Positions 3,367 to 12,969 of a stretch of DNA of 64,000 nucleotides are shown here, in pieces. The notes under the pieces were generated by a model. It worked only from the letters and a program-made list of their open reading frames with translations, ran no database searches and was not told the DNA's origin. This DNA comes from Candidatus Spongiisociaceae bacterium (GTDB lineage: Bacteria; Actinomycetota; Acidimicrobiia; Spongiisociales; Spongiisociaceae). Every line of letters begins with the position of its first letter. The stretch's first letter is position 1. The stretch covers positions 1,280,001 to 1,344,000 of the forward strand of contig OZ241841.1 in NCBI GenBank assembly GCA_965202665.1. Direction: 5' to 3'. Position numbers and translations under genes: made by a program.

Positions 3367-4341
3367 TTAGGCCTCGGCGGGGGTTTCGCCTTCGGCGGCG
3401 TCCCCCTCCGGGTCGGCCAAACCGCAATCGACCACCGCCTCCGCCGGGTCCTGGCCGCCGAACACCACCCGCTCATAGAAGACCACCGCCGTCAGTTCCT
3501 CCTCGGTCAGGTTGTCGAAGGAGGGCATCTGCCCGCCCGCTCCCACCGGTTTGCCGGTGTCGCCGTAGGTGGTGCGGTTGGCCGCCTCGAAACCGGTGGT
3601 GCCCAGCCGCACCCATTCCAAATGGTCGACGCACATGGAGAAGGTGGACAGCACCGCTCCGGCCAAAGCGGGGCCGGTGCCGCCTCCGCCGCCCGCCCCA
3701 TGGCAGGATTCGCAACTGGAAGCGGCGGCGTATACGGCCTGCCCTTGGCCGACAACCGCTCGGACGTCCACTCCCCCCGCCCCGCCGGCGGCCGCGAATT
3801 CGGAGCCGTCGCAATTCTCCACCTCCCCAGTGAGCCGATCCACCGCCAACTGGCCGCCCTCCCCGCAAGTGGGCCCGCCCGCGAAACTGATCAGGTAGGT
3901 GAGGCCCACCAGCGGCACCACCGCGAACAACAAACCCAGCCAGCGGGGAACGGTCGCCGACACCCTTTCCAGAATTCCGGCGACGGGGGCGGTCACCACC
4001 GCCTCGTAGTCGCCCGCTTCGGCCAAACCCACCCGCTCCGGAGCCGGGGGCCCGGCCGCAACGGCCGCCGCAGCCGGGGCGGGGGCGGCGGGAACGGGGG
4101 CGGCGGACGGGGCCGGGGCGGACTCCGTTGCGGCGGCGGTCTCCTCGGGAGCGGGAGCGGATGGGGCTGGCGCCGACTCCGCCGGAGCGGGGCCGGCGGG
4201 GGCCGGGGCTCCGCCCGCCCACGCCGTCAAAATCTCCTCCACGGTCACCCCGGCGGCGGCCGCCCGGGCGGCGGCGGAACGTTCCACCAGGGATTCGGGG
4301 GCTTCCATAGCGGCCGCGGCGGCGGCCAGCAGTTCGCTCAT
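3367..4341 (-). CDS. Membrane-anchored monohaem cytochrome c with N-terminal helical motif and Pro/Ala linker
   Basis: CESCH haem motif, GPAL, distal GQMPSF; one TM (WLGLLFAVVPLVGLTYLISF); 4-bp overlap with the upstream gene. Confidence 0.88.
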   Translation of the reverse strand: MSELLAAAAAAMEAPESLVERSAAARAAAAGVTVEEILTAWAGGAPAPAGPAPAESAPAPSAPAPEETAAATESAPAPSAAPVPAAPAPAAAAVAAGPPAPERVGLAEAGDYEAVVTAPVAGILERVSATVPRWLGLLFAVVPLVGLTYLISFAGGPTCGEGGQLAVDRLTGEVENCDGSEFAAAGGAGGVDVRAVVGQGQAVYAAASSCESCHGAGGGGGTGPALAGAVLSTFSMCVDHLEWVRLGTTGFEAANRTTYGDTGKPVGAGGQMPSFDNLTEEELTAVVFYERVVFGGQDPAEAVVDCGLADPEGDAAEGETPAEA

Positions 4342-5144
4342 TTCAGCTCCGTCAGATAGGCGGCCAGCGTCTCCAAGTCGCGGGCCGACAGGTAAGCGTA
4401 GGAGGGATGGAGGGCGCCGGGGGCGGCCTCGCCGGGATTAACCAGGAAATTAATTACGCCGGAGGCGGCGAGCGTCCCTTCCTCGGCCCCGTAACCGGGA
4501 CGGGCCCCCACTTTGGACAGGTCGGGCCCCAAGCGGCGAATCCCGAAACTGGCGTTTTTCAGGGAATCGGAGTAGGTCTCAGTCGCCGGACCCAGCCCTA
4601 CGTCGGCCAGCACCGGACGCACCAGCTGGGTGTGGCAGTACCAACATCCTTCCCGCAGATAGACGTCCCGTCCCGCCTCCGCCGCGCCGCTCAACACCGG
4701 ATCCCCCACCAAGTGGGTGAAGTCGCCTCCGGTGCGGGCCGGGATGGCCATGGCGACGATCACCGCCGTGGCAAACAAACCCAAAACCGCCAGCCAGACG
4801 GCCAACGGGCGGAAAGGCCGTCCCTCCAAGATGGGGGTGGCCCGGCGGCGGGCGGCCGGAGCGGGAGCGGCCGCCGGAGCGGACACGGCGACGGGCGCAG
4901 GAGGGGCGGGGGCGGCCGGGGCGGGAGCGGGGGAGGTGGCGGGTTCGGCGGACGGGGGCGGGGCGGAAACTTCTTTGGCGGGGGGGGCCGGGGCGGCGGC
5001 GGGCATGGGAGCGTCACCCGCCCAGGCCGCCAACACCTCCTCCGTGGTGGAACCGGCGGCGGCCGCCCGGGCCGCGGCCGAGCGTTCCACCAGATGCTCG
5101 GGAGCTTCCAGCGCGGCGGCCGCGGCCGCCAAACGATCACTCAT
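4338..5144 (-). CDS. ccoO: cbb3-type oxidase subunit II (CcoO/FixO)-like monohaem cytochrome c
   Basis: GRDVYLREGCWYCHTQLVRP and GIRRLGPDLSKVG match CcoO hallmarks; start taken at ATG 5144 (MSDRLAAA); distal Met position reads GALHPSY. Confidence 0.85.
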   Translation of the reverse strand: MSDRLAAAAAALEAPEHLVERSAAARAAAAGSTTEEVLAAWAGDAPMPAAAPAPPAKEVSAPPPSAEPATSPAPAPAAPAPPAPVAVSAPAAAPAPAARRRATPILEGRPFRPLAVWLAVLGLFATAVIVAMAIPARTGGDFTHLVGDPVLSGAAEAGRDVYLREGCWYCHTQLVRPVLADVGLGPATETYSDSLKNASFGIRRLGPDLSKVGARPGYGAEEGTLAASGVINFLVNPGEAAPGALHPSYAYLSARDLETLAAYLTELK

Positions 5145-5476
5145 CCCCGCCTCCCCCGGCCCCGCCGCGTAGCCGGGACTCTGAGATAAACGGACGCCGC
5201 CGACCCGCCCTCGCAAAAGTTCTGCGCCGCCCGCCCCGGAAACCGCAACCGCCGAAACGTCGCTCACCCCCCGCCGCCCCGCTGTCACACCCAACACGGC
5301 CAACGCCCCCGCCGGATGCGGCACGGCACCGATGCCGCGCAACGCACGCACCGACAACCCGGCCCCCGGCGACCGGTCCCCGGCGACCGCCTCGCGCCGT
5401 CCGGAGCCCGGGAGCGCCCGCCCCGGAAACCGCAGGCGCCGAACGTTGCGCCGGGCTCGCCGCGGCCGCCGACGGA

Positions 5477-6922
5477 TCACTCATTCTCGTTTTCCCCAGC
5501 CGGCGCGTCCGGGGCGCCCACCGCCGCCAGCACTTCCACCGGGGCCGCCTCCCCCGACATATAGGTTCGCGCCACCGACCACGCCAGCAAGCCCACCCCC
5601 GCCGCCGCGGCGACGGCCGCTCCCGCCGCCAGCGTGTACAAAGGAGAGACCCCGTCCAGAATGCTCCCGAACCCGGCCCCCGCGTTGCGCAACGCCCCGG
5701 CCGCGTTGGCCCAGTTCCAAGACAGGCCGGTCACCAACCCGGCCACTAGCAACAGGCCGCAGGCAACCGCCCCGCCCCACAAAGTCAGGCGCACCCCCGC
5801 CCCCACCGTGCGGGTTGAAAACACTTCCCGGCCGGTCAGCCGGGGAAAAGCGTACAGGACAAACCCCAGGCCCAGCAACGGAACCGCCGCCAGAACCAAG
5901 CCCAGATCCAGCCCCTCCTGCCAAGCGGTCAGGCCCACCGCGGCCGACACCGACCGGAACCCGGACAGCCCGGTCAGCCCGGTGACCGCGGCGTACATCA
6001 TCACCCCCGCCATAGTGGCCAAAAGGGCGGGCCGGGCGCGGGACTCCTCCCAGCCTCCTTGCAAAGTCATCGTCAAATTGACCGCCACCGCCAGGGCGGA
6101 CAATCCCAAACCCATGGCGGCCACCGCCGCCACCGACTCCATCCAAGCGGGGGCGGGACCGCTCATGTAACGGGCCGGGGCGGCCAGCAACCCGGCCCCC
6201 GCCAAAGTCCAAAACCCGGCCCGGGCCAACCCGCCGGAAAACAGGGGGCGTCCGCTGTCGCGGGCCACCGTGAAATAGGCGGCCCCCAAAGCGGCGGCCG
6301 GGAAAGCCACCGTCAGCGCCCCGCCCGAAACCAAGCCGGCCTGCAAGAAAGTTCCGATTCCGGTCAGGCCGGGAAGGGAGCCGGTTACGTACAGGGCCGG
6401 ATACCACCACAGCGCGGCCAGCACGTAGTAGAGGGAAATGTAGGACCCGCTTTCAGTGCGACGGCGCCAGATATCGGCCGCCGACAGGGCCGCGAACAGC
6501 ATGCAGGCGGCCAGCCCCCAGTCGATCACCGGCGGGAATTCGGCGAGCTCCGTCCCGGACGGCCCCCGGAACATGACCAGAACCGACCCCGCCGCAACCA
6601 ACCCGGCGTAGACAAGGCCGTTGAGCAGGGCGGCCCGTTCCCAACGCAAAGGGGCCCCGGTCAGCCGGGGAATCAGATAGTAGGCGGCGGCCTGGGTGAG
6701 GACGCCGCCCGCCCCGTACACCAGCAGGTTGTAAGCGGCGGGGCGCAGGCGGCCGTAGGAAAGAGGAGCGGCGGCGTCGAAGAGGACGGGAACCGCCAGT
6801 TTGATCATCAGCAGGGCGGCCAAAGCGGCCCCCGCCGCTAGGAAAAGGCAGGCGATCAACATCAAACCGGCGGCCGCCCCCGCCGCGCCGATCGGATTGT
6901 CTCTGGCAGTGGCCTGCGTCAA
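5477..6922 (-). CDS. ccoN: cbb3-type oxidase subunit I (CcoN)-like polytopic membrane protein lacking all metal-ligand histidines
   Basis: LSYGRLRP, YYLIPRLTG, ELAEFP, RPLFS..L...GFW, PAW, FPRLTGREVFS; about 12 TM segments; no His in 481 aa; TTG start with AAGGAG RBS. Confidence 0.82.
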   Translation of the reverse strand: MTQATARDNPIGAAGAAAGLMLIACLFLAAGAALAALLMIKLAVPVLFDAAAPLSYGRLRPAAYNLLVYGAGGVLTQAAAYYLIPRLTGAPLRWERAALLNGLVYAGLVAAGSVLVMFRGPSGTELAEFPPVIDWGLAACMLFAALSAADIWRRRTESGSYISLYYVLAALWWYPALYVTGSLPGLTGIGTFLQAGLVSGGALTVAFPAAALGAAYFTVARDSGRPLFSGGLARAGFWTLAGAGLLAAPARYMSGPAPAWMESVAAVAAMGLGLSALAVAVNLTMTLQGGWEESRARPALLATMAGVMMYAAVTGLTGLSGFRSVSAAVGLTAWQEGLDLGLVLAAVPLLGLGFVLYAFPRLTGREVFSTRTVGAGVRLTLWGGAVACGLLLVAGLVTGLSWNWANAAGALRNAGAGFGSILDGVSPLYTLAAGAAVAAAAGVGLLAWSVARTYMSGEAAPVEVLAAVGAPDAPAGENENE

Positions 6923-7137
6923 GCCCTACTCCTTACTCCGTTCTTCGTTCCGCCCCGGGCCGCCATTTGGAGCATACCGGGCGCCGCCCCGACCGCTTCC
7001 CCTTTCCGGTGCGCCGGGCGGTTAACATATCAGGGACGGACCCGGCGTCCTCTATTCTAATGACGCCGCCCCCGGACAAACAGCCTCCGGCGGCGGACGG
7101 GAGAAACGGGATGGCCGGTTTAGCCGCGGCGGGCTTT

Positions 7138-7155
7138 TATGCTATCAATAGCATA
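7138..7155. promoter_or_regulatory. Perfect 8-2-8 palindrome TATGCTAT-CA-ATAGCATA between the divergent respiratory operons
   Basis: AT-rich inverted repeat in a GC-rich intergenic region; each strand carries a TATGCT -10-like hexamer. Confidence 0.6.
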
Positions 7156-7219
7156 GAACCGGCGGGGCGGTCCAACGCCGGCGAAGGCTGACCTAGCGGA
7201 GACGGAGACAAGCCACCAG

Positions 7220-7996
7220 ATGCTGCAACGCAAGCTTCGGCAAATAAGCGACCGGGAACGTTCCCGCCTCGGCTGGGCCGTTTTTACGCTGGGCTTGGCC
7301 GCCCTGATCGTCGGCATCTGGTTCAACCATTACTCCAATTTTCCTTCGGTGGAAACGGTGACCATCCCCACCGCCGAAGCGGCCAGCGTGCAGGCGGGCG
7401 ATGTCATCATCTACGATCGGCTACCGCATGTGGTGGACCGCACCCCGGTCATCGACCCCTCCCTGCCGCAGACCACGGTGGATCTGCGAATCGAGGTGGA
7501 CTATTTCGGATGGGTGCCCCGGGACTGCCTGATTGCGGGCGGGGACTGGTGCCTGCCCTGGTCCACCTTGGGACATTTGGTCGCCTTGGGGGGCAGCCAG
7601 CTGATGTTGCTGGGGCTGGTCCTGGCCCTGATCCTCGGACGGCGGATGACTTGGGCTTTGGCCTCCTTCGCCGCGTTTTTGGCAATGCTGGAGCTGGTGA
7701 TCTTGCTGGGCAACGTGGCCTCGGAATGGCTCAACTTGGCCCAAGGCCCGCTCAACTGGACCGAGCAGAACGACGCCTTCGTCATCTGGCCCCCCCTGGT
7801 GCTGGGCAACAACGTGGGGATCAGCTGGGGGGCCATCAAGGACTTTGTTTCCATTAACTACAATATGGGGGTTCTCACCTTTATTATTCTGTTCGCCCGG
7901 TTCGTCCAGAAACTGGGCGGCCCCGCCCCGGCGGAGGAGCCGGCCGAAGAGGCCGTTTCCCCCTACGGGCGGCCGTTGGTCAAAGGAGTCAAGTAG
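7220..7996 (+). CDS. Uncharacterised multi-pass membrane protein, first gene of the Rieske/cytochrome b operon
   Basis: About 4 hydrophobic segments, GGAG RBS, C-terminal SPYGRPLVKG; stop abuts the ferredoxin start. Confidence 0.8.
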   Translation: MLQRKLRQISDRERSRLGWAVFTLGLAALIVGIWFNHYSNFPSVETVTIPTAEAASVQAGDVIIYDRLPHVVDRTPVIDPSLPQTTVDLRIEVDYFGWVPRDCLIAGGDWCLPWSTLGHLVALGGSQLMLLGLVLALILGRRMTWALASFAAFLAMLELVILLGNVASEWLNLAQGPLNWTEQNDAFVIWPPLVLGNNVGISWGAIKDFVSINYNMGVLTFIILFARFVQKLGGPAPAEEPAEEAVSPYGRPLVKGVK

Positions 7997-8452
7997 ATGG
8001 CCAAAACCCAGGTCTGGTTCGAGACGCCCCCCTTCCGGGACGACTACCAGCTGGCCATGGTGGACGCCGAATATGTGGACAGCCAGGTGCGGCCCAAGCA
8101 GTTCCTGCACATCAACCAGGCGGAATGCATTATCTGCGAGGGGTGCGTGGACATCTGCCCCTGGAAATGCATCCATTACCTTTCGTTGGACGCCATCGAC
8201 GAGGCGCACGGGGTGGAGCACCCGACGGACGGGGCGGACAACATGGGGTTTTTCGTGGTGGACGAATATGAGTGCACCCGTTGCCAACTGTGCATCGACC
8301 GTTGCCCCACCAACGTGATTTCCATCGGCAAATTCGAAGGGTCGGTCACCGACGCCGCCCTCAACGCCGGGTTGATCGACTCGGCGCCGTGGGACATCGA
8401 CACCGGGGCCCGCGATTTCAAAAACGGATACACCTACGGGATGAGATGGTGA
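7997..8452 (+). CDS. 2x[4Fe-4S] dicluster ferredoxin
   Basis: [12 protein letters not shown] and [12 protein letters not shown]. Confidence 0.93.
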
Positions 8453-8462
8453 GGAGGTTGAG

Positions 8463-9236
8463 ATGGCGAACGGCGACCGGGTGAGCCTGCGGGAGCGGAT
8501 CGCGTCCGCCGGCGAATCGTTCCGGGCCAGTCCGTTTTGGGAGTCCATGTTCCGGCCCGGTTCCCCTTTCAAGAAAGGTTACAGCGACAGCCCCCGCAAC
8601 CGCTCCTACGTGATAATGAACAACGTGCTCTACCACCTGCATCCGGTGAAGGTGAAGCGGCACGGGGTGCGCCTCTCCTACACGTTGTGCCTGGGAGGGT
8701 TGAGTTTTTTCCTGTTCATTCTGCTCACCATCACCGGCATTTTCCTGATGTTCTATTACCGCCCCACCTCCCCCGCCGCCTACATCGACGTGGAGGCCCT
8801 GTCAACTTCGGTGGCCTTTGGGTCGCTGGTGCGCAATTTGCACCGCTGGGGGGCGCATTTGATGGTGCTGACCGTGTTTCTGCATATGTCGCGCGTGTTC
8901 TACCATGGGGCTTACAAGCCGCCCCGGGAGTTCAACTGGGTGGTGGGGGTGGTGCTGTTGCTGCTCACCTTGTTGCTTTCTTTTACCGGCTATCTGTTGC
9001 CGTGGGATCAGTTGGCGCTGTGGGCGGTGACGGTGGGCACCAACATGGCCGGGTTTACGCCCCTGTTCGGCAACCAGGTCAAATTCGCCTTGCTGGGGGG
9101 GGTGGAGGTGACCGGCAACACCTTGCTCCGCTTCTACGTGTTACATGTGTTGTTCCTGCCGTTCATCATCGTCATTTTCATGGCCGTCCACTTCTGGCGG
9201 GTGCGCAAAGACGGCGGAATTTCGGGGCCGTTATGA
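8463..9236 (+). CDS. petB: Cytochrome b6-type subunit (N-terminal half of a split cytochrome b)
   Basis: YTLCLGG (haem ci Cys), HRWGAH...[19 protein letters not shown]-x14-H, C-terminal GISGPL. Confidence 0.93.
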
Positions 9237-9344: not shown

Positions 9345-10256
9345 ATGGCGGAACTGCCTGAACATCTTCTTATCCGCTCAGCGGAGGCCCGGGCCAAGGC
9401 CCTGGGCCTGCCGGTGGATCAGGTGCTGGCTGAAATGAAAGGCGAAGCCCCGCCCTCAGACCCCCCGCCGGCGGAGGAAGCCCCGCCCTCGGAGGCCCCG
9501 GCGGCCGCTCCGCAGGCGGCGATGGAGAGCGCCCCGGAGGCTGAATCCGTCGCCGGGGAAACCCCGGCCGCGGAAACCCCCGCTCCCTCGGCGGCCGCCG
9601 TCGAGCCGGAGCCGGTCGCGGCGACCGCGGTAGCGGACCCTCCGCCTTCCCCTTCGGCGGAGGCGGGCAACGGGGCGTCGGCGGCTTCGGTGTCGCCCCG
9701 CCCGGTGGTTCCGCCCGCCGAGGTGCCGGAGGGGGTGCGTCCGCAACGTCTCTTGACCGTGGTGAAAGCCCGCGCCATCCAGCAGGTCAAAGCCACCCCC
9801 ACCGACAAGGTGAACACCTGGCCTCATCTGATGATCGCCGAGTTTTCGGCCCTGATGGTGATCACCGCCGGGCTGATAGTGTTGTCGGTGATACTGCAGG
9901 CCCCGTTGCTGGAGTTGGCCAACTTCAACGCCACTCCCAACCCGTCCAAAGCCCCCTGGTATTTCCTCGGTTTGCAGGAACTGCTTTCCTACTACGACCC
10001 GCAGATCGCCGGGGTGATCATTCCCGCCGTCACCGGCCTGGTCGGGTTCATGGCCATCCCCTATGTGGACCGCAACCCGTCCACCAATCCCGCCGACCGC
10101 AAATTCGCCATCATGCTGTTCACCTTGTTTCTGACCGGTTCCGCCACCCTCACCATTATCGGCACCCTGTTCCGCGGACCCGGGTTCAACTTCACCTACC
10201 CGTGGGCGGACGGCATCTGGTTCGATGACTTGAAAGACTGGGTGCATTTCGAATGA
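9345..10256 (+). CDS. petD: Cytochrome b6/b subunit IV (PetD-like) with N-terminal motif and Pro/Ala/Glu linker
   Basis: WPHL, APLLELANFNATPNPSKAPWYFLGLQELL (Qo-motif region), PYVDRNP; 3 TMs; start at ATG 9345 with GGAGG RBS. Confidence 0.88.
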   Translation: MAELPEHLLIRSAEARAKALGLPVDQVLAEMKGEAPPSDPPPAEEAPPSEAPAAAPQAAMESAPEAESVAGETPAAETPAPSAAAVEPEPVAATAVADPPPSPSAEAGNGASAASVSPRPVVPPAEVPEGVRPQRLLTVVKARAIQQVKATPTDKVNTWPHLMIAEFSALMVITAGLIVLSVILQAPLLELANFNATPNPSKAPWYFLGLQELLSYYDPQIAGVIIPAVTGLVGFMAIPYVDRNPSTNPADRKFAIMLFTLFLTGSATLTIIGTLFRGPGFNFTYPWADGIWFDDLKDWVHFE

Positions 10257-11176
10257 CCTCCGTCCAGCTTCTGGTTTTGGCGGTGGCCGCGGTGGCGGTG
10301 GCGGGGGTGCTGGGGGCTTTCGTAATCGCCTACCGGCGCACCACCGGCGCCTCCCCCTCTGAACGCGCCCGCCGCAAAGTGCGGGTGTCGCGGGAAACGC
10401 GCCGGGCGGACCGTTCCCGCTTGGAAGAACCGGTGGCCGTATCGGTCCCGGCCGAGGAGGAACCGGAGGCCGCCCCGGCTGAGGCTGAGTCTGAGGAGGA
10501 CGAGGAGGAGGCTGAAGCCGAGGCCGGGGAGCTGGAACCGGTTGCGGCCGTGGCGGCGGTGGAAGTGGCGGCGGTGGAAGAGTTGTCCCCGGAGGAGGCG
10601 GGCGTGAACCGGCGCCAGTTTTTCACCCGGGCGCTGGGCATCACCTTCGGGGCTTTCCTGGGTTTGAACGGCATCTCCTATCTGGCTTTTCTGTGGCCGC
10701 GCCTGTCGGGGGGGTTCGGTTCCGACATCGACGTGGGCGACATCACCGAACTGCGGGCCGAGGTTTTCCTGTCGGACGGCTCCATCCTGCCCAAGTTCGT
10801 CCCCGAAGCCCGGGCCTACATAGTGCCCTTCGCCGAAACCGATGTTTCCCGCTCCCAGTTCGAAGGTCTGCCGGTGGTAGTGGGGGGCTTGACCGCCCTT
10901 TTTCAGCGGTGCGTGCACCTGGGTTGCCGGGTGCCGTGGTGCGAAACCTCCCAGGGCTTTGAGTGCCCCTGCCACGGTTCCAAATACAACTTCGCGGGCG
11001 AATACGAAGCGGGTCCCGCCCCCCGCAACCTGGACCGGTTCGCTTTGGAAAATCAGGAGGGGCGGCTGATCGTCAAAACGGGGACCATTCTGCAGACTTC
11101 GCGGGCCATCGCCAAGACCGTCCGCTATCCGCAGGGGCCGTCCTGCATCGCCTTGGACGCGGGCACGGAGGCGTGA
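10253..11176 (+). CDS. petC: Rieske [2Fe-2S] protein
   Basis: CVHLGC and CPCHGSKY boxes, GPAPRNL; internal Tat motif NRRQFF followed by a TM; extra N-terminal TM. Confidence 0.94.
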   Translation: MTSVQLLVLAVAAVAVAGVLGAFVIAYRRTTGASPSERARRKVRVSRETRRADRSRLEEPVAVSVPAEEEPEAAPAEAESEEDEEEAEAEAGELEPVAAVAAVEVAAVEELSPEEAGVNRRQFFTRALGITFGAFLGLNGISYLAFLWPRLSGGFGSDIDVGDITELRAEVFLSDGSILPKFVPEARAYIVPFAETDVSRSQFEGLPVVVGGLTALFQRCVHLGCRVPWCETSQGFECPCHGSKYNFAGEYEAGPAPRNLDRFALENQEGRLIVKTGTILQTSRAIAKTVRYPQGPSCIALDAGTEA

Positions 11177-11179
11177 CCG

Positions 11180-12619
11180 GTGGCCACGTTGGTCGTCACC
11201 ATCGTCGCTTTAGGGGCCATCGGTTGGTTCGCCTACCTGGTCGGGTCGGGGTCGCGGCGGGACCGGCGGGATCCGGTTCCGTCCAACCTGTCGGCGGCCG
11301 CCACCGACGACGAACTGGAAACCACCCGCTTGGACCGCACCCTGATGGGGGCGGTGGTGGCGGCCGGGTTCCTCACGTTGGCCATGCCCATCTACTACCT
11401 GAGCGAGTTCGACCGCCAGGAGGGTTTCGTGGAAGAGTTCGCCGAAGCCTCTTTGGATCGGGGGCATGAGGTGTGGGAGGAGTTCGGGTGCGGGGACTGC
11501 CATGGGGCAACCGGGGGGGGCGGGGTGGCCGCCTACCTGGAGGAGCGCTCCAAAGTGAACGTGCCCGGCTGGGCGGCCCCCGCTTTGGACGACATTTTCT
11601 TCCGTTACGACCGGGACGAAGTACGGTTCTGGATCACTTACGGCCGGGCCAACTCTCCCATGCCCGCCTGGGGTTTGGAAGGGGGCGGGGCCCTCAACTC
11701 CCAGCAGATCGACGACCTGCTCAACTACATCGGGGCTTTCCAGATTCCGCAACAAGACGCCCTGCTCAGAATCGAGGGGACGGTGAACGGGGCCCGCAAT
11801 CGGCTGACCGGGGCCTCTGAGGCGGTGGGGCAGCAGATCGCCGACCAGCAGGCCTTGGTGGAGGAAATCACCAACTCCGGGGAAACTTCGGTGGCGGTGA
11901 CCGACATCGCCGACCGGGCCCGGGACGTCTTGGACGGGGCCGGGGACGGGATCGACACCGACGGGGACGGCCTGTCGGACAGGGCCGAATCCGATCTGAC
12001 CGCCATCGGGCGGGAAGCTCTGGAAACCGGTTTCCTGGCGGTGGATACCTCCTTCGATCCCCGCAACGTTGAAACCCTGATCGGGTCTTCGGATTCCCGT
12101 TCCGCCGCCCGCATGGTGAGCGACTTGGAGTCGCGGGCCACCTCTTTGACCATTACCTCCCAGAACCGGGAAGTCCTGCTGGAACAGGCCCGGTTTGGGC
12201 TGTCTTTCTTGGAGGAAGCGGCCGGGGCGGCCCGCTGGGAAGTGGATTTCCAAGAGGTGGCGGACGGATCCTTCGGCGGGGATCGGGAAAGGGCGGAGCG
12301 GGCCGCGGCCCTGTTCAACGGATACTGCGCCCGATGCCACACCGCCGGTTATTCGGCCGGGCCGGCTTTCCAACAGGTGCAGGCGTCCGGGGCGCTGGGG
12401 CCGTCGTTGCGGGCGGGGCGCTCCCGAACGCAGTTCCTGGCAGCGGAGGACATGGCCGAGTTTTTGCAGAAAGGTTCCGTTTCGGGTGAAGGTTACGGGG
12501 TGAACGGGGTGGGTTCGGGGCGGATGCCCGGCTTCGGACAGGTGCTGTCGGGGGAGGACATCGACCTGATCGTGGGATATCTGCGAGGGCCGACTTTGGA
12601 CGGGCGGGAGGATAACTGA
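11180..12619 (+). CDS. Membrane-anchored dihaem cytochrome c
   Basis: CGDCH with SPMPAWG and CARCH with GRMPGFG; two N-terminal TMs; central helical region containing DTDGDGLSD. Confidence 0.9.
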   Translation: MATLVVTIVALGAIGWFAYLVGSGSRRDRRDPVPSNLSAAATDDELETTRLDRTLMGAVVAAGFLTLAMPIYYLSEFDRQEGFVEEFAEASLDRGHEVWEEFGCGDCHGATGGGGVAAYLEERSKVNVPGWAAPALDDIFFRYDRDEVRFWITYGRANSPMPAWGLEGGGALNSQQIDDLLNYIGAFQIPQQDALLRIEGTVNGARNRLTGASEAVGQQIADQQALVEEITNSGETSVAVTDIADRARDVLDGAGDGIDTDGDGLSDRAESDLTAIGREALETGFLAVDTSFDPRNVETLIGSSDSRSAARMVSDLESRATSLTITSQNREVLLEQARFGLSFLEEAAGAARWEVDFQEVADGSFGGDRERAERAAALFNGYCARCHTAGYSAGPAFQQVQASGALGPSLRAGRSRTQFLAAEDMAEFLQKGSVSGEGYGVNGVGSGRMPGFGQVLSGEDIDLIVGYLRGPTLDGREDN

Positions 12620-12969
12620 TGCGGGAGTTGTTCCGGACGATTCTTTCCCAGAACCTGCTGTTCACCGGGATCGTGTTGACGGCGGCGGCGGTGCTGGTGT
12701 TTTTCGGAACCATATACCTGTTGAACCACACCAACCTGGGCCGCCGGTTGGCGGTGCTGATGCTGGGAGCGGGAATTTTCGGATGGACCACCATCAACTC
12801 CATCCTGTTCGTGCTCTACGCGCCGCGGGGCCCGCGACCGGTGGATTTCGAGGGGTTGAACGCCTTTGAGATCCGGATCATCCCCGGGGCGTTCGCGGCC
12901 GGCTCCGCCATTTTGTTCGCCATGTTCCTAGTGGCCCTGCACCGCTACGAACGGGACCAAGAACGTTAA
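12619..12969 (+). CDS. Small 3-TM membrane protein
   Basis: Three hydrophobic segments; TGATG overlap with the dihaem cytochrome c gene; GGAGG RBS. Confidence 0.8.
   Translation: MRELFRTILSQNLLFTGIVLTAAAVLVFFGTIYLLNHTNLGRRLAVLMLGAGIFGWTTINSILFVLYAPRGPRPVDFEGLNAFEIRIIPGAFAAGSAILFAMFLVALHRYERDQER

Follow-up and report, generated by a model that had tools for sequence, protein, structure and literature searches.

The locus described here lies in a window of 64,000 nucleotides, the whole stretch of DNA that was analysed. On the minus strand, positions 5477–6922 encode a membrane protein of 481 residues with 12–13 predicted helices and no histidine, hereinafter designated pseudo-CcoN. The frame begins with a TTG codon and has no internal stop; a Shine-Dalgarno sequence, AAGGAG (6929–6934, minus strand, read from the sequence), lies 6 nt before the start. 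The intact frame without histidine, the ribosome-binding site and the transmembrane pattern described in the initial annotation are all confirmed. Contigs from two studies span the gene without a gap, one of them identical and one with 29 differences over 5386–7300.

Two genes for membrane-anchored monohaem cytochromes c follow downstream on the same strand, a CcoO/FixO-like protein of 268 residues (4338–5144) and a second cytochrome that is only loosely CcoP-like (3367–4341). The spacer between pseudo-ccoN and ccoO (5145–5476, minus strand) resembles a decayed duplicate of the ccoO start; a similar insert is found in the congener G001, and the two genes overlap in most relatives. A 115-aa open reading frame over the spacer (5137–5484) was rejected as a real gene and is probably non-coding. 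Its codon score is −0.40, compared with +0.15 to +0.23 for its operon neighbours, although a strain variant alters its length by 6 nt, in frame.

Back-to-back with pseudo-ccoN, a Rieske/cytochrome b (complex III) operon runs on the plus strand. It begins with a conserved membrane protein of no known family (7220–7996) and continues with a 2[4Fe-4S] ferredoxin-like protein (7997–8452), a split cytochrome b of the cytochrome b6 type (8463–9236), a PetD-like subunit IV (9345–10256), a Rieske protein (10253–11176), a membrane-anchored dihaem cytochrome c (11180–12619) and a small conserved membrane protein (12619–12969). The initial annotation recorded the ligand loss, which stands, but left the partner genes and the adjacent complex III operon unmentioned. 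The divergent promoter region contains a perfect 6-6-6 palindrome (7138–7155) that occurs once in the window and has a partial counterpart in G001 only; it is possibly a regulator site. A promoter scan upstream of pseudo-ccoN found nothing.

In the source genome (G000), one intact haem-copper oxidase (HCO) was found. It is a caa3 oxidase with A-family motifs, and its CoxII carries a c haem. Cytochrome bd gave no match in this genome. The genome encodes four likely c-type cytochromes, all membrane-anchored by sequence.

Sequence and predicted fold of pseudo-CcoN

Pseudo-CcoN matches the COX1 profile above its cut-off (91 bits) and scores 97 bits against TIGR00780 (CcoN), for which the cut-off is 583. 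Its only matches in the PDB by phmmer are five cbb3 CcoN chains, aligned over the full length with E values of 1e-15 to 6e-14. An AlphaFold2 model of the protein (pLDDT 86.6) was searched with Foldseek. The top seven matches are all cbb3 oxidases, with 3MK7 aligned at a TM score of 0.84–0.85, an RMSD of ~2.8 Å and 21% identity, and NorB structures score lower (TM 0.75–0.78). The predicted fold is therefore that of CcoN, as had been proposed, and no sign of a COX1-unlike fold was found in the model.

The alignment to CcoN places RPAAYN on RPLHTN, LVSGG on WYGHN, APARY on GPHH and EGLDLG on GHVH, in line with the four replaced histidine motifs first reported. Specifically, the columns that we take to provide the ligands of low-spin haem b are occupied by Ala63 and Leu340, and the presumed haem b3 column by Leu338. 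The CuB columns (His207, His257 and His258, numbered as in PMC3578206) are occupied by Gly200 or Ser199, Ala250 and Arg251, and the column of the cross-link tyrosine in helix VII by Gly244. The ligand columns hold neither Cys nor Met. The features of nitric oxide reductases (NORs) are likewise missing: pseudo-CcoN has no histidine for haem b or b3, and no Glu or Asp is conserved at the metal-site columns.

Compared with the CcoN of P. stutzeri cbb3 (3MK7), pseudo-CcoN is alike in predicted fold, length, gene order (N-O-cytochrome c) and the existence of natural N-O fusions, but it is without the six histidines, the cross-link tyrosine and most proton-path residues. Moreover, the third gene encodes a monohaem cytochrome c instead of the dihaem CcoP of cbb3 operons, and no ccoQ was seen. 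By these defining features, pseudo-CcoN is not a member of the cbb3 oxidases.

Loss of cofactor ligands across the family

Neither a ligand-column histidine nor the cross-link tyrosine was found in any of 58 homologues (27–92% identity; one is a fragment spanning two of the columns). Close orthologues thus lack the ligands as well, and decay confined to one lineage, which the initial annotation had considered, does not account for the loss. Each of the 58 homologues has 1–11 histidines elsewhere, and 3 of 29 hydrophobic coding frames of 400–560 aa in the source genome also contain no histidine. The complete absence of histidine from pseudo-CcoN is therefore incidental.

In a profile search, 1651 proteins scored at E values of 0.001 or below. 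Sequences of at least 400 aa from the best 150 of the 1651 and from the tail of the 58-homologue search were aligned, giving 131 sequences with the query included. Ligand histidines number none in 91 of them, one in 11, two in eight, five in one and six in 20. The query falls inside a ligand-less clade of 107 sequences, in which each histidine column contains 0–6% histidine and the tyrosine column contains no tyrosine (0/107). No Cys, Met or His is conserved at the lost-ligand columns of this clade, and alternative haem- or copper-binding residues, named in the initial annotation as grounds for refutation, are not apparent from these sequences.

Most of the presumed proton path of cbb3 has been lost with the ligands. 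The Thr, Ser and Tyr columns that we take to form it are 82–93% conserved in 40 intact relatives, in which the cross-link tyrosine is 93% conserved, versus 7–16% in the ligand-less clade. Specifically, the input-channel threonine is kept in 7%, the serine in 16% and Tyr310 in 13% of the clade, while Tyr216 is kept. Most of the residues still conserved are Gly, Pro or Trp; Arg58, Glu128, Arg323 and Thr332 are kept as well. The haem arginine of GRLRP and the ExxE loop (TELAEFP), earlier read as a retained Ca2+ site, are both present in this protein, but not consistently across the family. Of the two ExxE glutamates, the first is found in 32 of 107 sequences and the second in 78%; of the two GRLRP arginines, the second is found in 40 of 102 and the first in 92%. 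The argument from a Ca2+ site thus fails family-wide.

Five sequences from a genus with ~1-Mb genomes sit apart from this clade at the end of a long branch and are assigned as orthologues by synteny; they were excluded from the 107-sequence counts and from the AU test described below. The N-terminal third of pseudo-CcoN is strongly diverged in this genus.

Pairwise dN/dS of pseudo-ccoN (Nei-Gojobori) is 0.05–0.33 in 17 of 17 pairs, which are non-independent and include some dS values near saturation, and is 0.23 against the nearest relative, G001. These values are similar to those of ccoO and higher than those of petB (0.01–0.07). Because ligand histidines are absent from all 58 homologues and the gene is under purifying selection, ligand loss is a family trait and not local decay. 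Neither mark of a pseudogene is present: the frame is unbroken, the codon score is normal, and dN/dS is far from neutral. The suggestion that a non-catalytic function has been maintained thus holds up, with no ligand histidine in the homologues and dN/dS below 0.35 in every pair. Pseudo-CcoN is a real and conserved pseudoenzyme of the HCO superfamily.

The gene is present in 39 of 40 relatives examined (37 of 38 without G028 and G039). In a class sample of 150 genomes, it was detected in 31 of 36 genomes of the same order, in 32 of 35 genomes of the ~1-Mb genus (0.9–1.1 Mb) and in one genome in each of two more families; the other 77 gave no match. The ~1-Mb genus appears to be Ca. Actinomarina and the order UBA5794/Ca. 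Spongiisociales. The source labels of homologues name Acidimicrobiia.

In a phylum sample of 250 genomes, other classes also carry the gene, namely 10 of 10 genomes of family f48 (including G308) and 7 of 18 of family f50. Sixteen loci were fetched from this sample, of which nine are ligand-less and seven encode six-His proteins. Homologues from f48 (L193:9096-10793; L184, L185 and L192) keep the last histidine. In L193, both presumed low-spin haem ligands are retained and the binuclear site is gone, and these proteins possibly represent an intermediate stage of ligand loss. In small actinobacterial genomes (L179, L180, L181 and L190), an intact CcoN, the sole COX1 match, is followed by a five-haem CcoO fusion of 640–673 aa. 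Two genomes of one genus encode membrane proteins of 438–448 aa with weak COX1 similarity and several retained histidine motifs (L200:7269-8582 and L201:7326-8669), convergent with a small cytochrome c; one of these genomes is without a recognisable terminal oxidase.

Partner cytochromes and the shared N-terminal motif

The CcoO partner matches FixO (49.7 bits) and contains a CWYCH haem c motif, and its distal Met is replaced by His. This ligand varies: fused forms have Met, the family of the source and the small-genome genus have His, and four loci have Gln. The CxxCH motif is intact in every complete CcoO examined, including those of ~1-Mb genomes, and some of the invariant columns of the fused family fall in the CcoO haem domain. 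The second cytochrome contains CESCH and keeps its Met. It has a single haem motif and scores 18.8 bits against TIGR00782 (cut-off 180), which sets it apart from dihaem CcoP, and its gene is found also in lineages without pseudo-ccoN.

Pseudo-CcoN and CcoO are fused in 5 of 20 same-order loci and in 4 of 12 loci of a second class set. A model of a fused homologue has a pTM of 0.91, a value that may reflect likeness to solved cbb3 structures. Because of the gene fusions, the fixed adjacency and this confident model, pseudo-CcoN very probably binds CcoO.

CcoO starts with a helical motif of ~45 aa (5004–5144, minus strand) followed by a Pro/Ala linker. The same motif is present at the N-terminus of the monohaem cytochrome c (4201–4341, minus strand), and a shorter form at that of subunit IV (9345–9455, plus strand). 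Exactly four proteins of the source genome carry it, the fourth being a 387-aa membrane protein encoded near the caa3 operon (G000:C1:1367150-1368310; L159:7151-8311). The motif is unannotated, gave nothing significant against Pfam and the PDB, and occurs in up to five repeats per protein in relatives. No named relative of the fourth protein was found. The protein was found only in families with split pseudo-CcoN and CcoO (23 of 41 genomes), a pattern that may simply reflect kinship. Its homology to the C-terminal extension of the G050 protein was rejected (E 1.1).

Association with complex III genes

Divergence of pseudo-ccoN from the membrane protein, ferredoxin and cytochrome b genes is conserved in 20 of 20 same-order loci and in 12 of 12 loci of the second class set, with intervening genes in two of the 12. 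At the nine ligand-less loci of other classes, complex III genes lie within a few kb in seven; one of the nine is cut by a contig end, and L178 adjoins neither ccoO nor complex III. A ferredoxin gene is present in the complex III operon of nearly all loci examined, in several classes.

The five same-order genomes without pseudo-ccoN have no COX1 match, and their petB matches are distant or absent. Eight of eight class loci of non-carriers keep the Rieske/cytochrome b genes together with a partner gene that bears the motif, and have neither pseudo-ccoN nor ccoO nearby; since the partner gene persists there, the monohaem cytochrome c does not need a pseudo-CcoN scaffold in these loci. Class families without pseudo-ccoN and ccoO mostly retain an A-family oxidase.

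The module is tied less closely to caa3 than to complex III, because G173 (95% complete) has kept the module and complex III and gave no match for an A-family oxidase, CoxII or cytochrome bd. The pseudo-CcoN of G050 carries a C-terminal cupredoxin domain (L035:8090-10219). A single run of genes there has the caa3 genes placed between pseudo-ccoN and ccoO and also contains cytochrome c maturation genes and the monohaem cytochrome c gene.

Ligand-poor CcoN in Verrucomicrobiota

A scan with a distant ligand-less alignment yielded 80 loci, nearly all titled Verrucomicrobiota. In these loci, ccoN, ccoO and a cytochrome c gene follow a pentahaem-cytochrome operon, recognised from sequences, which we take to encode alternative complex III (ACIII). 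CcoN has six ligand histidines in 66 of the loci and 0–2 in 14, and the 14 ligand-poor proteins form one clade nested in intact CcoN. In a tree of 45 chosen sequences, built with the ligand columns removed, the actinobacterial ligand-less group has an SH-aLRT of 98, and the AU test rejects a topology that unites all ligand-less sequences in one clade (p=1.6e-5). Because the single-origin tree is rejected, ligand loss, as judged from these sequences, arose at least twice, each time beside complex III.

Genomes of 50 of the 80 loci were searched for other oxidases. A match of A-family strength is present in 14 of 14 ligand-poor genomes and 23 of 36 intact ones, and A-family motifs were seen in all six ligand-poor genomes checked. 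The excess is consistent with the role proposed below, the 14 genomes being one clade and so offering no valid statistical test.

Discussion

The sequence evidence points to a non-catalytic pseudo-CcoN: it has no cofactor ligands and no conserved substitutes for them, has the predicted fold of CcoN, and is under selection. Among the roles suggested in the initial annotation, that of a scaffold has the most support, from the CcoO fusions and the synteny; that of an ion channel loses ground, with the polar membrane residues lost along with the ligands. We infer that the pseudo-CcoN/CcoO module is an accessory of complex III from the back-to-back synteny, the joint loss, the shared N-terminal motif and the parallel ACIII case. 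On balance, we favour a model in which a cofactor-free CcoN scaffold holds CcoO as a complex III accessory that likely relays electrons toward caa3. Pseudo-CcoN would hold the CcoO-type cytochrome against the neighbouring Rieske/cytochrome b complex, and CcoO would add a haem step toward the oxidase. Electrons would pass from quinol through the Rieske/cytochrome b complex and the dihaem cytochrome c to CcoO and/or the monohaem cytochrome c, and then to caa3; transfer from CcoO to caa3 is the least certain part. In evolutionary terms, an ancestral complex III-cbb3 unit would have ceded O2 reduction to caa3, after which the catalytic site decayed and the CcoN body stayed.

Several points weigh against this model. 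The module is dispensable, being absent from 77 of the 150 class genomes; the variable distal ligand of CcoO fits poorly with a tuned relay; and CcoO could be a dead end, because haem b, to which it hands electrons in intact cbb3, would be missing.

A bolder version, which we put forward tentatively and think rather doubtful, is that HCOs at least twice became cofactor-free organisers of complex III. In these actinobacteria, a shared cytoplasmic helical tag would tie the emptied CcoN barrel, CcoO, the monohaem cytochrome c, subunit IV and the caa3-linked membrane protein together as a III-IV supercomplex of a new type, and quinone or lipid would occupy the pockets that once held haem.

Several alternatives were weighed against the scaffold-and-relay model. 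The module could be an entrenched structural relic that stabilises complex III (or a supercomplex) or sets its spacing, with a CcoO haem that carries no useful flux. In most pairs, pseudo-ccoN evolves faster than petB by a factor of 2–9, at about the rate of ccoO, the distal ligand of CcoO varies, other families that retain complex III have lost the module wholesale, and the N-terminal third is strongly diverged in the ~1-Mb genus, all of which would suit a relic. We nevertheless consider it unlikely, given the CxxCH motif in every complete CcoO and the invariant haem-domain residues of the fused family.

It is improbable, in our estimation, that the emptied haem pockets bind menaquinone or lipid and make pseudo-CcoN/CcoO a new quinone-linked branch or conduit of complex III. 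Three of the histidine columns now hold mostly small residues, which could leave cavities; exchange of Met for His as haem ligand, which lowers the potential of cytochromes, would lower that of CcoO; and pseudo-CcoN tracks complex III better than caa3, as in G173. No conserved polar or aromatic set has taken the place of the ligands, however. We would give equally little weight to a platform on which c-type cytochromes or caa3 are assembled or matured, with a part in haem or copper handling. In other lineages ccsA, resB, ccmE, ccmF, thioredoxin-like or ctaA/ctaB genes adjoin pseudo-ccoN, and the G050 copy has its cupredoxin domain, but no metal or haem ligand is conserved, none of the 20 same-order loci has maturation genes between its two operons, and families without pseudo-CcoN still encode caa3 and complex III.

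A redox or gas sensor, in which CcoO reads the redox state of complex III or takes up a gas ligand and the CcoN body passes the signal across the membrane, seems very improbable. Intact cbb3 takes part in signalling in Rhodobacter, the CcoO of four loci has neither Met nor His as distal ligand, some cytoplasmic-loop residues are conserved, and many genomes have rex as the locus ends. Against this, no kinase or transducer is conserved beside pseudo-ccoN, a search for Rex boxes near promoters gave matches at chance level only, and most CcoO copies have a candidate sixth ligand. Still less credible is an ion or proton channel: a haem-free 12-helix barrel could leave pores, but the polar columns fall to 7–16% conservation and the clade has gained no conserved charged residue in the membrane. 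The idea of an O2 or NO reductase with other ligands, or of a recently decaying pseudogene, is already largely refuted and has a negligible chance of being right; the database labels and the few distant relatives with one or two ligand histidines speak for it, and the absence of histidine, the Cys- and Met-free ligand columns without conserved substitutes and a dN/dS well below 1 over the order-wide family speak against it.

Known systems offer partial precedents for the scaffold-and-relay model. In actinobacterial bcc-aa3 supercomplexes (7QHO, 6ADQ), membrane-bound c haems link complexes III and IV, and the dihaem cytochrome c contacts CuA directly. The proposed route would likewise be a monoderm solution with membrane-bound c haems; we know of no CcoN-fold accessory subunit in the bcc-aa3 supercomplex. 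In P. aeruginosa, intact cbb3 and bc1 form a supercomplex via CcoN, CcoO and CcoP (PMC10556555; 8SMR), which sets a precedent for a structural tie to complex III. There, CcoN is catalytic and contact is made through cytochrome c1. In contrast, complex III at the present locus is of the b6/subunit IV type with a ferredoxin and a dihaem cytochrome c, and caa3 would be the enzyme that reduces O2.

Among HCOs with altered sites, cNOR NorB (3O0R, 4XYD) shares with pseudo-CcoN the fold (TM 0.75–0.78), a cytochrome c partner and the missing cross-link tyrosine, but keeps six histidines and its FeB ligands and has a lower structural score than CcoN. To our knowledge, the six histidines have been treated as invariant in the HCO superfamily. 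The gNOR family is described as the first HCO family to replace one active-site histidine, and it is still catalytic (PMC11214002; 10.1101/2021.10.15.464467). Such variant families have altered active sites in common with pseudo-CcoN, which has lost all six histidines without substitute. An HCO classification database discarded sequences without six histidines (PMC3084760), which may explain the neglect of the family. In the literature covered, mostly papers outside subscription and their main texts, no account of a CcoN family without ligands came to light. A group of HCOs termed 'unknown', credited to Muntyan et al. 2015 in PMC5492636, may overlap with the ligand-less family or its intact relatives.

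If the proposed role is correct, pseudo-CcoN would represent a widespread, twice-evolved HCO pseudoenzyme and reveal that the CcoN body can serve a structural role independent of catalysis; it would also point to an undescribed wiring between complex III and complex IV in monoderms. Because databases label the homologues cbb3 subunit I, high-affinity microaerobic respiration has probably been misassigned to the genomes that carry them.
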